Shown piece after piece: positions 50,805 through 57,140 of a stretch of 64,000 nucleotides of DNA. The notes below the pieces were generated by a model that made no database searches, was not told the origin of the DNA, and saw only the letters and a list, made by a program, of their open reading frames with translations. Position numbers and translations under genes: made by a program. Numbering within the stretch: position 1 is the stretch's first letter; each line of letters opens with the position of its first letter. Source of the DNA: Escherichia coli (GTDB lineage: Bacteria; Pseudomonadota; Gammaproteobacteria; Enterobacterales; Enterobacteriaceae); NCBI RefSeq assembly GCF_030384885.1, contig NZ_CP128613.1. One strand, given 5' to 3'.

Positions 50805-52901
50805 TTAGCGGAAATTGACGCTTCGGTCGCTGGTCATGTCATACAACTGGAACTTACGCCCAAGTTGCTGACCACCGTCACGCGTCAGCGGCGTCCAGCC
50901 AATTGCCGCTCGGCTACGAGTCGGGCCAGACGAGAAGAGATCCAACGGTACAGAGATATACACGCCTTTGGTGAAGTCCCCTTCGCCGTACTCCTCTTTC
51001 GAAACATTCGTGATCGTGGCATACCCACCCACTACCACGCCGCTGTCAAAGCGTTTGGCGATTTCCAGCGTGCCGCCTTTATCCCCTGCCAGATATTGCC
51101 CGACGCTGGCTTTCACTAACACATCCTGAGCGAAAGATGGCGTCCAGTAGGCGGTCAGATGTCCGGTTTTCACGCTGTAATCGGTGAATTTCATCATATC
51201 TTTCGCGCTACGCCAGTCGCGCTGTTTAACGTAGTTAGCATCCAGACCAAACGCCCAGTTGCTATCCAGCGGGCGATACAACACCTCTGCCCCCACGCCG
51301 CCAAACATGGTTTCGAGATAACCACCGTAGACCTGACCGTAGAAGCCGTTGCCCAGATGCTGGAAGTAGTTGGCTTGCAGGTTATTCACATAGACATCAT
51401 TCTGCACATACTCACGCACATGGGTACGCACGCGCGGTAAGTGCGAGTCCTGCGGCGGATTGGTGTAGTTAAACTTGTCGTAGTTGTTGGCAAGGTTAGC
51501 AAACAGGCTGCCGGTGGTCAGCAGATGGTCCGTCAGCCACAAATCTGCCGTTCCCATCACGCCCAGCTGATACATGTAAAAGTTTTCCGGGCCACCGACC
51601 GACTGGTTTAGCACCGGATCGATATGGAAATCAAAGCGTGATTTGTCGATATACCAGCCCTGCTCGGTGGACTTCGGAACCACTGGCTCGACGCGTTTTT
51701 GCGCCAGCTTCGTTTCGTGGCCCAACGGCTCTCCGGCAAGATGATTTTTCAGGCTGGCGACATCGGTTTCCGTCGTCACCTGCGGCATGTTAAGGCGATT
51801 TTCTGTAACGCGGATCGTCTTGATCCCATCCGGCAGATCGTTCATCACGATCCGATTAGCACGGATGATCCCTTCGCGCGAATCACGATATTTCACCTGC
51901 TCACCGGTGACGTACAGCGTATCGCCTTTCGTCTGGATCTGCGGATCGGCCAGTCCGGCGTTGTATTTCAACAGCGTTAACTGATTCGCCACCACCGAAT
52001 GCTGCAAAATGGCATCCTGCGGCTGCGGTTGATATTGCGGACGGGCGTTATCGTTGTAGGACGGGCGTAGATCGTTAAAGTTGGTACGCAGCGTGACGCC
52101 AAACATAAAGGTGTTACCGCGTTCATAGCTAAGGTTAACGTCGGCCCAATCGGTAACGCGATAAATCGCCCCGACGTTAAACTTACTTTTTTGCTCCAGC
52201 TTCCCGGCAAAATCCTGCTGATAATTATTGCCTTCATACTCCAGTTTCAGACGCAGCGGCTGCCAGGGCGTCTGGTATTCCACGCCGCCAAACAGTGAGG
52301 CCGGACCGTGGAACATCTGGCTGCCGTCGATAGATCCCGCTTGTTTGTAGCTGTTATCGCGATAGCAATATTTGTCACTGGCTGAACAGAGCGGATTTTT
52401 CACGTTACCGCTGGTGCCCAGATATCCCCAGCCCAGGCCGAGCGTAAAATCGAATGGCCCCCAGGCTTTGCTGGCGACAAGATATTCCGCATCGAACAGC
52501 CCCGTACCGCCGATATCCCGCGCACCAACCGCCACCTGTGGCAGCCAGTAACTCTCTTCCCATAAACGCAGTTTGAGATCGAAGGCTTTATCTTTATACG
52601 TTTGATCACCAGAGAACGCTTCGACGCTGCTGTACTGCCGAGTGCGCACGTCGGTATAACGCAGCGTTGTTTCCAACCACGGGAAGAGTTGCACCGAAGC
52701 AGAGTAATAACGGTACTGATCGTTATCGCGATAGTTCAGACTCAACTCCCCTTCCCGCGCCATGCGCGCAGTAGGTGTTTGTAATAATCCTACGCCACCG
52801 AAATCCGATTGCGACGGACCAATGGGCGAAGGATATGTTTCGCCGTAGCAAGCCGTGCTAATGCCCAGCGCCAGTAAACTAAGCAGATGTCTTTTTTTCA
52901 T
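50805..52901 (-). CDS. yjbH: YjbH, outer-membrane lipoprotein of the yjbEFGH exopolysaccharide locus
   Basis: 698-aa ORF; signal and lipobox region [18 protein letters not shown]; last gene of four co-oriented overlapping genes. Confidence 0.9.
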
Positions 52902-53638
52902 TATTGCGGTATCCGCTGCGTCAGAGTCTGAAGAATGTCAGCGTTAAGGGCATCAGGCGTCTCACTCCAGACGGAGTCCGCGAGGCCAACATAAATAATG
53001 CTGCCGGGCATCAGCTCTACGTGACGCTTGTTCCAGTAAGCCACCGGCGCTTTTTGCGTGCGTCCATCCGGATAAACGACCCACGCGTAGCTGCGATCCG
53101 CACCGCTGAGCAGGCTCTGGTCAGAGAGATAGCTCGCCACGTCGCGACCGGGAGTGAATGGCTGATTGCCAGGACGGCTGATAAGCCCGAATAACGTGAC
53201 CGTGGACGGTGGTGGTCCGACCCACAGCGTGTAGTTGCCCTGCAACGGCGGGTTACCGCGTTCGGCAACGCGCACGATATCAGGATCAAGATTGATTTTT
53301 TGTCTGCCCGTCACCTTCAACGCCTGAATTTGCTGGCGTAAGGCGTTAATGGCGGCGGCATCGTCGGTGCTGGATTCTGAGGCCAGTTCTGCCAGCCTTG
53401 TCAGCAACGCCTGCTGCTGCCGTAATGCCGCCGCCGTTGCCAGCTCTTCGCTAATCACCGCTCCGGGCCACCAACTGTTTGCCAGCCGCGGTTGGCCTAC
53501 CAGATCGATTAAATGCTCTGCGCCCGTTAGCGTTTTGGCCTCATTGCTGCCATTACTGAACACTTTGACGGTGCCTGCCGCAAAGACCGATGACGCTCCC
53601 ACGCTCATAATCAACGCAGCAATAGTTTGTTTAATCAT
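52901..53638 (-). CDS. yjbG: YjbG, periplasmic protein of the yjbEFGH locus
   Basis: 245 aa from [20 protein letters not shown] (signal peptide); track ORF begins upstream at 53734; 4-nt overlap with yjbF and 1-nt overlap with yjbH. Confidence 0.88.
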
Positions 53639-54303
53639 TGTTTTGCCGCCTTGATGAGAGTGGTTTTCACCGGGAAATAATCCGCGCCGAGATACTGTTC
53701 CGACTGGCGAATTTGCCCTTCGCTGTCGATCCAATAGCGGTTATGCCAGCGAGCCTGGTCGGTGGAGACTTCTTCGTCCAGCACACGAACCGGAGTTTCA
53801 TCGCTACCGACTTTGACAGTATCGGTGCCATCCCATTTGAAAACCGAGCGTGCGGTGGCGTAGCGCACCTGCTGGTACTCGGTCCAGCCCATCGTGCGCG
53901 TCCAGGTTGCGCCATCAACAATTTGTGCGGGTTTTATCAGCGGGTCGGCGGCAAGGTTATTCACTTCAATCAGGTTGTCGCCGCCAAGCAAAGTCTTCAC
54001 CAGACGACCATGTTGTGTGACGAGAGTGGCTTGATCCTGAGTAACCCATTTTTGTTGTCCATCTTCAGCGAAGGCCAGCACCACAAACAACTGCGGCCCG
54101 CCATTAAGCTGCATGTACTGGCTGGCGTAGGGCATATTTTGAATATCATCGTCCGTCAGCTGTACGCCTGGCGTACCGAACAGACTGTCCCACAGTGAAT
54201 TGCCCAGCTCTTTAGTCGTGGCTGAACAAGCCTGTAATAGCAGGCAGATAAGAATGAGTGCAGGTCGCTTCACGACTCTTCTCCAGAGGGGCAGAATAAC
54301 CAC
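53635..54303 (-). CDS. yjbF: YjbF, lipoprotein of the yjbEFGH locus
   Basis: 222-aa ORF (possible later GTG start at 54273 giving 212 aa); lipobox LLQACSA. Confidence 0.85.
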   Translation of the reverse strand: MVILPLWRRVVKRPALILICLLLQACSATTKELGNSLWDSLFGTPGVQLTDDDIQNMPYASQYMQLNGGPQLFVVLAFAEDGQQKWVTQDQATLVTQHGRLVKTLLGGDNLIEVNNLAADPLIKPAQIVDGATWTRTMGWTEYQQVRYATARSVFKWDGTDTVKVGSDETPVRVLDEEVSTDQARWHNRYWIDSEGQIRQSEQYLGADYFPVKTTLIKAAKQ

Positions 54304-54387
54304 ACCGGAGTGTGGTTATGGTTAATCCCCGTCATACTTCAAGCCACAGATGCGATGACTCGAATTATTTTAGGGATACATACTTTA

Positions 54388-54630
54388 TTACTGGGTACTG
54401 GTGGTCGTGGTTGTGGTGGTCCCGGTATTAGAACCATCACCGCCACCGGTTGCCGCGAGCGCGACACCCACCGCCGAGCTTACGGTGCTGACGCTGGTCG
54501 CGGAGGAGCTACCCGCCGAAACCGACGTTGCTGCCGCCCCTGCCGCTTCGCCCACCTGTACAGGTGCAGCCCACGCAGAAGTCGCCGCAAGCGCAGATAT
54601 GGCAAAAATGCCATACAGAACTTTTTTCAT
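54388..54630 (-). CDS. yjbE: YjbE, small secreted low-complexity protein
   Basis: 80-aa ORF; signal peptide [21 protein letters not shown]; Ala/Ser/Gly/Thr-rich mature part with a T7 run. Confidence 0.85.
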
Positions 54631-54933
54631 AACAATTTCCCTTCATTGAATGAATGGAGATTTACCCAAAAACATTTCGGGCGGGATCGAGTATACACAA
54701 CTAAAGCATGCGAATTACGGCGTGGGGAATTAGTGACGGGGTTTTAAGATAATTGGAATGAATATCAAATATAAGTTTCACATTATATATAAATAACATT
54801 GCAAATCATAAACTTAAAATAAAACAAAAAGGAATGAACCTGCGTATTTTCCGAAATCAACCACAATTAAAAATCTATTTTAGGATTAACCTCACGGTAT
54901 GATTTCTGTTAAATCACAGACAAGGGGATTTAT

Positions 54934-54969
54934 CTGATAAAACAATGCCGACTTATAGTCGGCATTGTT
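54934..54969 (-). terminator. Intrinsic terminator of pgi
   Basis: 12-bp stem AACAATGCCGAC/GTCGGCATTGTT with loop TTATA; minus-strand U tract follows. Confidence 0.75.
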
Positions 54970-54984
54970 ATTAAGGTTATTTAA

Positions 54985-56854: not shown

Positions 56855-57140
56855 ACTACCTGCGCTAGCGCAGGCCAGAAGAGGCGCGTTGCCCAAGTAA
56901 CGGTGTTGGAGGAGCCAGTCCTGTGATAACACCTGAGGGGGTGCATCGCCGAGGTGATTGAACGGCTGGCCACGTTCATCATCGGCTACAGGGGCTGAAT
57001 CCCCTGGGTTGTCACCAGAAGCGTTCGCAGTCGGGCGTTTCGCAAGTGGTGGAGCACTTCTGGGTGAAAATAGTAGCGAAGTATCGCTCTGCGCCCACCC
57101 GTCTTCCGCTCTTCCCTTGTGCCAAGGCTGAAAATGGATC
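56855..57140 (+). ncRNA. lysC leader containing a lysine riboswitch (L-box)
   Basis: About 300-nt leader between a promoter-like TTGACA (56817-56822) and the lysC ATG; conserved L-box segments AGAGGCGC (56878-56885) and GGTGAAA (57063-57069); boundaries approximate. Confidence 0.6.

Follow-up and report, generated by a model that had tools for sequence, protein, structure and literature searches.

The reading frame at positions 54388-54630, on the minus strand of the window (the whole 64,000-nucleotide stretch of Escherichia coli DNA that was analysed), is yjbE, the first gene of the already known yjbEFGH operon of this organism. To this, the analysis adds several features that are incremental but concrete, namely two phased RcsB-type sites upstream of the gene, an overlapping match to the RNA family STnc430, a frozen Thr-tailed motif at the end of the protein, a small-protein partner found family-wide beside the downstream genes, and a conserved hairpin between yjbE and yjbF. 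The explanation proposed here combines the identity of the gene, its regulation by the Rcs system and a role of YjbE as an abundant client of the outer-membrane module made up of YjbF, YjbG and YjbH, rather than as a part of that machine. Taken as a whole, this composite explanation has about even chances of being correct. Of its components, identity and regulation are all but certain, and the client role, a tentative proposal, would rank somewhat below even.

The yjbE gene and its operon

The gene starts with ATG, comprises 80 codons and ends in a double stop, TAATAA. Its product matches the Pfam family YjbE (PF11106) with a score of 113.7 bits (cut-off 27.9) over model positions 1-79 of 79, and corresponds to RefSeq WP_000757329.1, the yjbE annotation in an identical strain. 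That strain is E. coli 2013C-4282, with which the surrounding 4.4 kb are 100% identical and in which RefSeq gives the order pgi, yjbE, yjbF, yjbG, yjbH. Since an annotated yjbE is, in addition, present in all but one of 5426 complete E. coli genomes (5425), the name that the initial annotation had given to the gene from its sequence is correct, and the gene was known beforehand.

The same annotation had described the product as an 80-residue secreted protein of low complexity with a run of seven threonines (T7), which agrees with the features found. By inspection, residues 1-21 (54568-54630, minus strand) resemble a Sec signal peptide, with a KK pair, a hydrophobic core, the sequence A-W-A as an A-x-A cleavage site, and no Cys. 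Mature YjbE would consist of 59 residues, about 88% of them A, S, T, G or V and only two of them charged, and it has no predicted structure. The T7 run is encoded by mixed codons (ACC ACC ACA ACC ACG ACC ACC) and is therefore not a slippage-prone DNA repeat, an origin that was considered and ruled out for this reason.

Three genes follow on the same strand. These are yjbF (53635-54273; 212 aa; GTG start as in RefSeq), encoding a lipoprotein of the GfcB family (PF11102, E = 6e-64); yjbG (52901-53638; 245 aa), of the GfcC family, with matches to PF20616 and PF06251, the N- and C-domains of GfcC; and yjbH (50805-52901; 698 aa; PF06082), encoding a two-barrel outer-membrane protein of the GfcD family, after which come yjbT and psiE. 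The yjb operon holds no gene for a glycosyltransferase or another polysaccharide-making enzyme. The initial annotation had yjbE followed by three overlapping genes. The three do overlap one another, by 4 nt between yjbF and yjbG (ATGA) and by 1 nt between yjbG and yjbH (TAATG), but yjbE itself does not overlap yjbF, from which it is separated by a structured spacer of 114 nt. Comparison with solved structures related YjbF to PDB 2in5 (YmcC/GfcB; E = 3e-43) and YjbG to PDB 3p42 (GfcC; E = 4e-54), and returned no relative for YjbH. The gene names proposed earlier stand, as does the assignment of YjbF as a lipoprotein, but not that of YjbH as one. The YjbH sequence GISTAC is no canonical lipobox, so that the label derives from annotation only, and the paralogue GfcD is experimentally not acylated (PMC8592465); YjbH is thus probably not a lipoprotein. 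In the same report, GfcB and GfcC bind GfcD, and an outer-membrane complex is described (PMC8592465).

The closest counterpart of the operon is gfcABCD of E. coli K-12, from the group 4 capsule locus. It has the same four-gene order, a gap of 106 nt after the first gene (114 nt in yjb), and the same overlaps, of 4 nt between gfcB and gfcC and of 1 nt between gfcC and gfcD. Identities amount to 39-42% for YjbF and GfcB, 41-42% for YjbG and GfcC, and 65% for YjbH and GfcD. Judged by identity and gene layout, YjbF, YjbG and YjbH are paralogues of GfcB, GfcC and GfcD, which bears out the description of the cluster as associated with exopolysaccharide. The gfc operon runs on into paralogues of wza-wzb-wzc (gfcE-etp-etk), whereas yjbT and psiE occupy this place in yjb, and gfc exports the O-antigen capsule, whereas the Yjb polymer is undefined. 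[quoted passage not shown]

The first genes of both operons also resemble each other in general layout. GfcA and YjbE each have a signal peptide, a body rich in A, G, V and T, a D-G...N-T patch and a Thr-rich end; they align, however, only when the low-complexity filter is switched off, and the hydrophobic segment of GfcA is much the stronger of the two. Membership of GfcA in the Pfam YjbE family was considered and discarded, as no match appears at E <= 0.1. From their sequences, YjbE and GfcA thus appear to be counterparts in position and composition rather than demonstrable homologues. In the literature, GfcA and its relatives are called uncharacterised and "predicted natively unstructured" (PMC11494523, PMC8346858).

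Constraint on YjbE and its counterparts in distant loci

The orthologous locus was retrieved from 80 species of Enterobacteriaceae. The position of yjbE directly upstream of the yjbF-yjbG-yjbH set, as found in the window, is kept in 78 of them. In the 71 species that possess the complete four-gene set, identity to the window averages 89% (YjbE), 81.5% (YjbF), 67.9% (YjbG) and 88.1% (YjbH), which places YjbE about level with YjbH and above YjbF and YjbG. The gene is exactly 80 codons long in 67 species, and in these 67 the exact T7 run (54400-54420) is preserved and residues 52-77 are invariant, with two to four codons in use at each position. Together with the near-universal annotation of the gene in E. 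coli, this retention places the feature well outside chance. Constraint is thus concentrated in a strictly conserved C-terminal motif, residues 52-80 (54391-54477, minus strand). Pooled Nei-Gojobori estimates of dN/dS give 0.015 for this motif and 0.13 for residues 22-51, with 0.12 for yjbF as a reference; the signal peptide, at 0.25, is under less constraint than any other part of the gene. Synonymous change within the motif is ample to saturating and, together with the value of 0.015, this argues that YjbE is functional as a protein. Low-complexity linkers usually drift in both length and sequence. By these measures the odd tail of YjbE is strictly conserved at the protein level, ranks among the most constrained segments in the locus and is not filler, which is the new point with respect to a known gene.

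A word-indexed homologue search with YjbE as query retrieved little apart from copies of yjbE that were frameshifted or truncated. Frameshifted copies are present in some genomes, including a form in Shigella dysenteriae that has no T-run. As the search was uninformative on the breadth of the family, YjbF was used as query instead. An exhaustive search yielded 555 clusters at 50% identity, from which ten representatives with 46-25% identity to YjbF were inspected. Nine of them have readable upstream sequence, and in each of these the yjbF homologue is preceded by a small gene of 74-112 residues with no Pfam match; the tenth contig is truncated, yet a Thr-rich tail is still visible in it. The layout of these small proteins comprises a signal peptide, a stretch rich in A, G, S and T, a hydrophobic segment of A, V, G and I, a short patch that is either acidic or Asn-Gly, and a tail rich in Thr that often ends in Arg. 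The tail after the hydrophobic segment has a net acidic charge and no more than one Arg at its end. According to the best 19-residue Kyte-Doolittle average, the hydrophobic segment scores 1.7-2.5 in GfcA and in seven of the nine distant relatives; that of YjbE reaches 1.24, with about ten clearly hydrophobic residues, and is too short for a membrane helix. By this comparison of predicted products, a small protein of YjbE layout is found with the module in every inspected locus that has readable upstream sequence, and so appears as its universal partner; YjbF identity in these loci goes down to about 26%.

Regulatory elements upstream of yjbE

The initial annotation had placed the regulatory input of the operon in the AT-rich region between pgi and yjbE and had suggested a search for an RcsAB box there. 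Both proposals were borne out. The spacer (54631-54984) has a GC content of 32.2%, and its core of 22.7%, against 50.5% for the window, in which only 3% of 354-bp segments are equally AT-rich. It contains a single match to the core pattern TNAGN5TCNNA, TGAGGTTAATCCTA, at 54881-54894 on the minus strand, 264 nt 5' of the yjbE ATG. About 0.12 matches would be expected in the spacer by chance, and the whole window has 21 against 22.7 expected. A match to the core alone is therefore uninformative and was rejected as evidence in its own right; conservation across species was required, and the orthologous loci were compared for this reason. TGAGGTTAATCCTA agrees with the published RcsB box, TN(G/A)GAN4TC(T/C)NA, at 13 of 14 positions (consensus from PMC7913699). 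Of the 67 species with standard yjbE, 65 keep the core T-N-R-G-N5-T-C-N-N-A, and the contigs of the other two end too early to include it. The N positions vary freely. The offset from the ATG lies between -246 and -277 in 62 species and at about -360 in three Pseudocitrobacter. Such a fixed core with free N positions is what a protein-binding site would be expected to show at the sequence level.

A second, proximal RcsB-type site, TCGGAAAATACGCA, lies at 54841-54854 on the minus strand and keeps the pattern T-N-R-G-A-N4-[A/C]-C-N-N-A at a fixed offset. Like the distal box, it departs at a single position from the RcsB-box forms listed in PMC7913699. Measured from start to start, the sites are 40 bp apart in Escherichia and 50-51 bp apart in every other genus. 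The 11 bp between these spacings amount to one helical turn, and by their spacing the two putative sites are helically phased. According to PMC5461412 and PMC5651002, which cite Ferrieres 2007, yjbEFGH is under the control of RcsA-RcsB. The conserved two-site region fits this published activation by RcsA-RcsB under envelope stress and constitutes a putative operator. Other promoters of the Rcs regulon, such as those of colanic acid (wza/cps) and rcsA, offer the same 14-bp pseudo-palindromic box, T-N-R-G...T-C-N-N-A, 5' of an exopolysaccharide-related operon and with published RcsA dependence (PMC5461412, PMC5651002, PMC7913699). The yjbE region differs from these RcsAB-box promoters in having two phased sites instead of one and an overlapping match to an antisense sRNA family.

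A candidate yjbE promoter can be proposed at 54782-54809 on the minus strand, with ATGATT (54804-54809) as the -35 element, TATAAT (54782-54787) as the -10 element and a 16-nt spacer between them. In about 50 of 66 species, TGA(W)(W)N occupies a constant position relative to the proximal site, and the TATAAT of the window is perfect. This promoter would put the RcsB-type sites near -72 and -112. Further downstream, the conservation profile of 63 species shows that the 75 nt before the ATG (54631-54705, minus strand) are near-invariant; they include a TATACT (54690-54695) and the ribosome-binding region. The conserved leader of 100 nt folds no better than shuffled sequence (z = -0.6), and on the yjbE strand it has no Rfam match. 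At the other end of the spacer, the pgi terminator, a hairpin followed by a T-tract (54939-54966, minus strand), is symmetric and usable in both directions, as indicated by its sequence and by compensatory stem changes across species.

On the opposite strand, an element missed by the initial annotation was found, a match to STnc430 (Rfam RF02053) at 54827-54976, plus strand, that represents a candidate antisense sRNA. It scores 71.7 bits against a gathering threshold of 47 over the full-length model, covers both RcsB-type boxes and extends as far as the pgi terminator, here read in reverse; STnc430 was detected in 9 of 13 orthologous loci. The only promoter-like site found by the promoter scan, ATAACA-16-TAAAAT at 54793-54820 on the plus strand, would start transcription near 54827, which is the first position of the Rfam model. 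Its -10 element recurs at a constant distance as GTTA(W)AAT, and 53 of 66 species match it at five or more of six positions. In E. coli K-12, nothing is annotated at this position, and a search for functional literature on STnc430 returned none.

The match raises the question of whether the conserved blocks of the spacer are due to the antisense sRNA, the boxes being the two arms of an RNA helix. The reverse complements of both boxes are indeed contained in the Rfam consensus and are paired there as a helix. This reading would also account for the mutual reverse complementarity of the two blocks, and it draws on the score above the gathering threshold here and in the related loci, on the conserved plus-strand -10 and on the terminator available to the transcript. 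Within the helix, however, five of the seven pairs are invariant across 37 species and the two variable ones show no covariation, since pairing is kept in 26 of 37 species where about 26 would be expected under independence, and in 16 of 37 where about 17.6 would be expected. Pairing at the level expected for independent positions indicates no selected RNA helix, and the pattern favours two inverted DNA sites. Moreover, the conserved positions follow the pseudo-palindromic pattern of an RcsB box and not a contiguous seed, the shift of 11 bp in Escherichia preserves the face of the DNA helix, and Rcs control of the yjb operon is published. An RNA origin of the blocks is therefore improbable, and the reading of two RcsB-type DNA sites is preferred. 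STnc430 itself may nevertheless be real alongside the Rcs sites, as the two readings are compatible. In that case, its candidate promoter would overlap the candidate yjbE promoter back-to-back, and RcsAB bound at what would be positions +15 to +68 of STnc430 would, from this geometry, be placed to block the sRNA.

A proposed client role for YjbE

The spacer between yjbE and yjbF carries conserved structure, with a fold z of -3.65 relative to shuffled sequence. The hairpin ATAACCACAC-TCCG-GTGTGGTTAT (54296-54319, minus strand), the second of two in this spacer, has a stem that is identical in 66 species and is a candidate partial terminator or mRNA stabiliser. In most species the loop is TTCG and TTATTTTG comes after the stem, the window having the weaker TTATTCTG. 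Here the 10-bp stem is followed only by UUAUUCUG and no terminator is called by the scan, as against UUAUUUUG in most other genera. Nine of the ten distant loci have a canonical hairpin with a U-tract at the same position. The other hairpin, a short ERIC/IRU-like repeat after the yjbE stop (54325-54377, minus strand), occurs in Escherichia only, and a full-length repeat element occupies the same site in one of the loci compared. Judged by the ERIC consensus, the short repeat is probably an ERIC element.

PMC8208086, citing Ferrieres 2007, reports that yjbE mRNA is more abundant than yjbFGH mRNA, and that yjbE alone was scored as induced in an RNA-seq comparison in Salmonella. The published explanation of the excess of yjbE mRNA is stability and not termination. 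Either by termination or by stabilisation of the upstream mRNA, the conserved hairpin would yield an excess of YjbE over the machinery encoded after it. As background, in pilus operons such as those of papA and fimA the abundant major subunit is encoded by the first gene and a stem-loop precedes the assembly genes, with unequal mRNA levels as a result. The likeness of these systems to yjbE is one of operon logic only, with no relationship in sequence or structure.

The proposed mechanism is that YjbE would be an abundant client of the YjbFGH outer-membrane module and not a part of the machine. After cleavage of the signal peptide, unfolded YjbE would be handed to a module consisting of the lipoprotein YjbF, a periplasmic, GfcC-like YjbG and the two-barrel outer-membrane protein YjbH, and would be exported to the cell surface or anchored there. 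At the surface, it may carry, nucleate or tether the Yjb-dependent polymer, with the frozen C-terminal motif (16 residues plus T7) acting as a putative recognition or attachment element. AlphaFold2 models of YjbF-linker-YjbE and YjbH-linker-YjbE showed no docking, with a pLDDT of 19-33 for YjbE; the runs, a weak test of docking, used shallow alignments and an artificial linker and yielded no interface scores.

Two other readings of YjbE have to be weighed against the client role, one of which turns on a feature of its relatives that speaks against export, the hydrophobic segment of membrane-helix length in GfcA and in most of the distant small proteins. YjbE could accordingly be a small membrane-anchored accessory or regulatory subunit, its hydrophobic segment spanning the inner membrane and its Thr tail remaining cell-associated and never exported. 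Besides the hydrophobicity of 1.7-2.5 in GfcA and seven of nine distant relatives, which lies in the membrane-helix range, the K-12 annotation of GfcA as "threonine-rich inner membrane protein" and the failure of the models to predict docking of YjbE to YjbH point in this direction. The segment of YjbE itself, however, reaches only 1.24 with its ten or so clearly hydrophobic residues, the net acidic tail with no more than one terminal Arg has the wrong charge for a cytoplasmic tail, and there would be little reason to expect a terminator-type hairpin between a subunit of the machine and its partners. A membrane-anchored subunit thus appears unlikely. Far less credible is a yjbE product devoid of function, encoded by a low-complexity leader ORF of which only the translation or the mRNA would tune the expression of yjbFGH. 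Such a reading would suit a short protein of low complexity that is predicted to be unstructured, and the frameshifted copies, including that of Shigella dysenteriae without the T-run, would be no surprise to it. It is contradicted by the dN/dS of the tail under saturating synonymous change, by the length fixed at 80 residues in 67 species, and by a protein layout that is conserved in the distant loci where the sequence is not; translational coupling is, in addition, unlikely across a structured spacer of 60-114 nt. This makes the leader reading very nearly untenable, and the client role is retained as the preferred account of YjbE.

Comparison with systems that export small structural proteins gives a mixed picture. 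The initial annotation had proposed curli and Gfc loci for this purpose, and the Gfc side of the proposal led to the paralogy described above, whereas the curli side found no homology to CsgE, CsgF or CsgG and was set aside, as the only Pfam families with matches in these three proteins (YjbF, YjbG, YjbH) at E <= 0.01 are YjbF, GfcC and YjbH. With curli, in which CsgA and CsgB are exported via CsgE, CsgF and CsgG, the yjb locus shares only the idea of a small secreted structural protein combined with lipoprotein-dependent export across the outer membrane, and the gene organisation is unlike that of yjb. As for the Fap functional-amyloid system of Pseudomonas, with FapF as the channel and FapC and FapB as its substrates, the match of YjbH to FapF is unspecific among 12-stranded barrels, KdgM and NanC scoring nearly equally, and YjbH has a second barrel, resembling polysaccharide porins, that is absent from FapF. 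Counterparts of FapA, FapD and FapE were not found at the yjb locus with Pfam, and YjbE presumably has no repeats of the FapC type.

A broader form of the client proposal would extend it to all proteins of YjbE type, that is, YjbE, GfcA and the small genes 5' of hundreds of yjbF/gfcB homologues. These proteins would be the secreted substrate of a FapF-like YjbH/GfcD barrel, and the four-gene module would be a widespread, unrecognised exporter of an unstructured, Thr-tailed protein that anchors or scaffolds capsule and exopolysaccharide at the cell surface, possibly linked to glycan via the Thr run or self-assembling via its Gly/Ala/Val core. This generalisation is possible but doubtful. In any case, the constrained tail, the module-wide partner and the separating hairpin make the function of GfcA and YjbE directly testable. 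[quoted passage not shown]

The spacer between pgi and yjbE

The 75 nucleotides that directly precede the yjbE start codon (54631-54705, minus strand) are nearly unchanged in 63 species, whereas the synonymous sites of the neighbouring genes have diverged heavily. Neither a match to an RNA family nor an unusual fold was seen in this near-invariant stretch. Further upstream, the spacer holds in antisense orientation a hit to STnc430, an sRNA family in Rfam (54827-54976, plus strand); the hit covers both RcsB-type sites (54881-54894 and 54841-54854, minus strand). The K-12 annotation holds no feature at this position, and a search for functional literature on STnc430 returned none.

In K-12 and most E. 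coli, a REP/BIME-type element of ~145-160 bp lies directly 3' of the pgi stop codon (2409-2560 in the K-12 locus, L003), and the K-12 copy is matched by Rfam as naRNA4. The element is absent from this strain at the junction 54984/54985, where the spacer measures 354 bp, as opposed to 498-512 bp in its carriers.

Flanking genes and other RNA elements

Convergent with the 3' end of yjbH is yjbT (50480-50758, plus strand; Pfam PF17089, an uncharacterised periplasmic protein). Beyond it, psiE (in the region ~49800-50400 and below) directly adjoins malG, and xylE, which separates the two genes in K-12, is missing. Since xylE is present in 3637 of the 5426 complete E. coli genomes, its absence is a common polymorphism in this species. 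Other Rfam matches in the window are the lysine riboswitch of the lysC leader (56871-57067, plus strand), the sRNA sraL (12423-12563, plus strand) and two REP-derived naRNA4-like elements (5099-5170 and 42993-43063, both on the minus strand).

Database records of the locus and of YjbE

Frameshifted or truncated YjbE entries are numerous in the databases (P0002, P0017, P0019 and others), and possibly represent pseudogenes or sequencing errors. Among them, a Shigella dysenteriae entry has 74 aa and lacks the T-run, and E. coli entries of 63-64 aa derive from multi-megabase contigs; yjbE itself is repetitive and GC-rich. Separately, an enterobacterial pgi-yjbEFGH locus occurs in a record named 'Chryseobacterium sp. 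18061' (L063, CACSKA010000007.1). It is almost the same as the locus in 'Citrobacter sp. 18056' (L061), a record from the same study. The Chryseobacterium assembly is probably mislabelled or contaminated.

Insertions between yjbE and yjbF

Just 3' of the yjbE stop codon lies a short, probably ERIC/IRU-like repeat hairpin (54325-54377, minus strand), confined to Escherichia. In a Citrobacter species, this position is taken by the element at full length (L030, 3314-3500), and other genera carry REP-like inserts 3' of the conserved yjbE-yjbF hairpin (54296-54319, minus strand). During laboratory evolution, IS1 has also inserted into this spacer (PMC8117528). The yjbE-yjbF spacer looks like an insertion hot spot.
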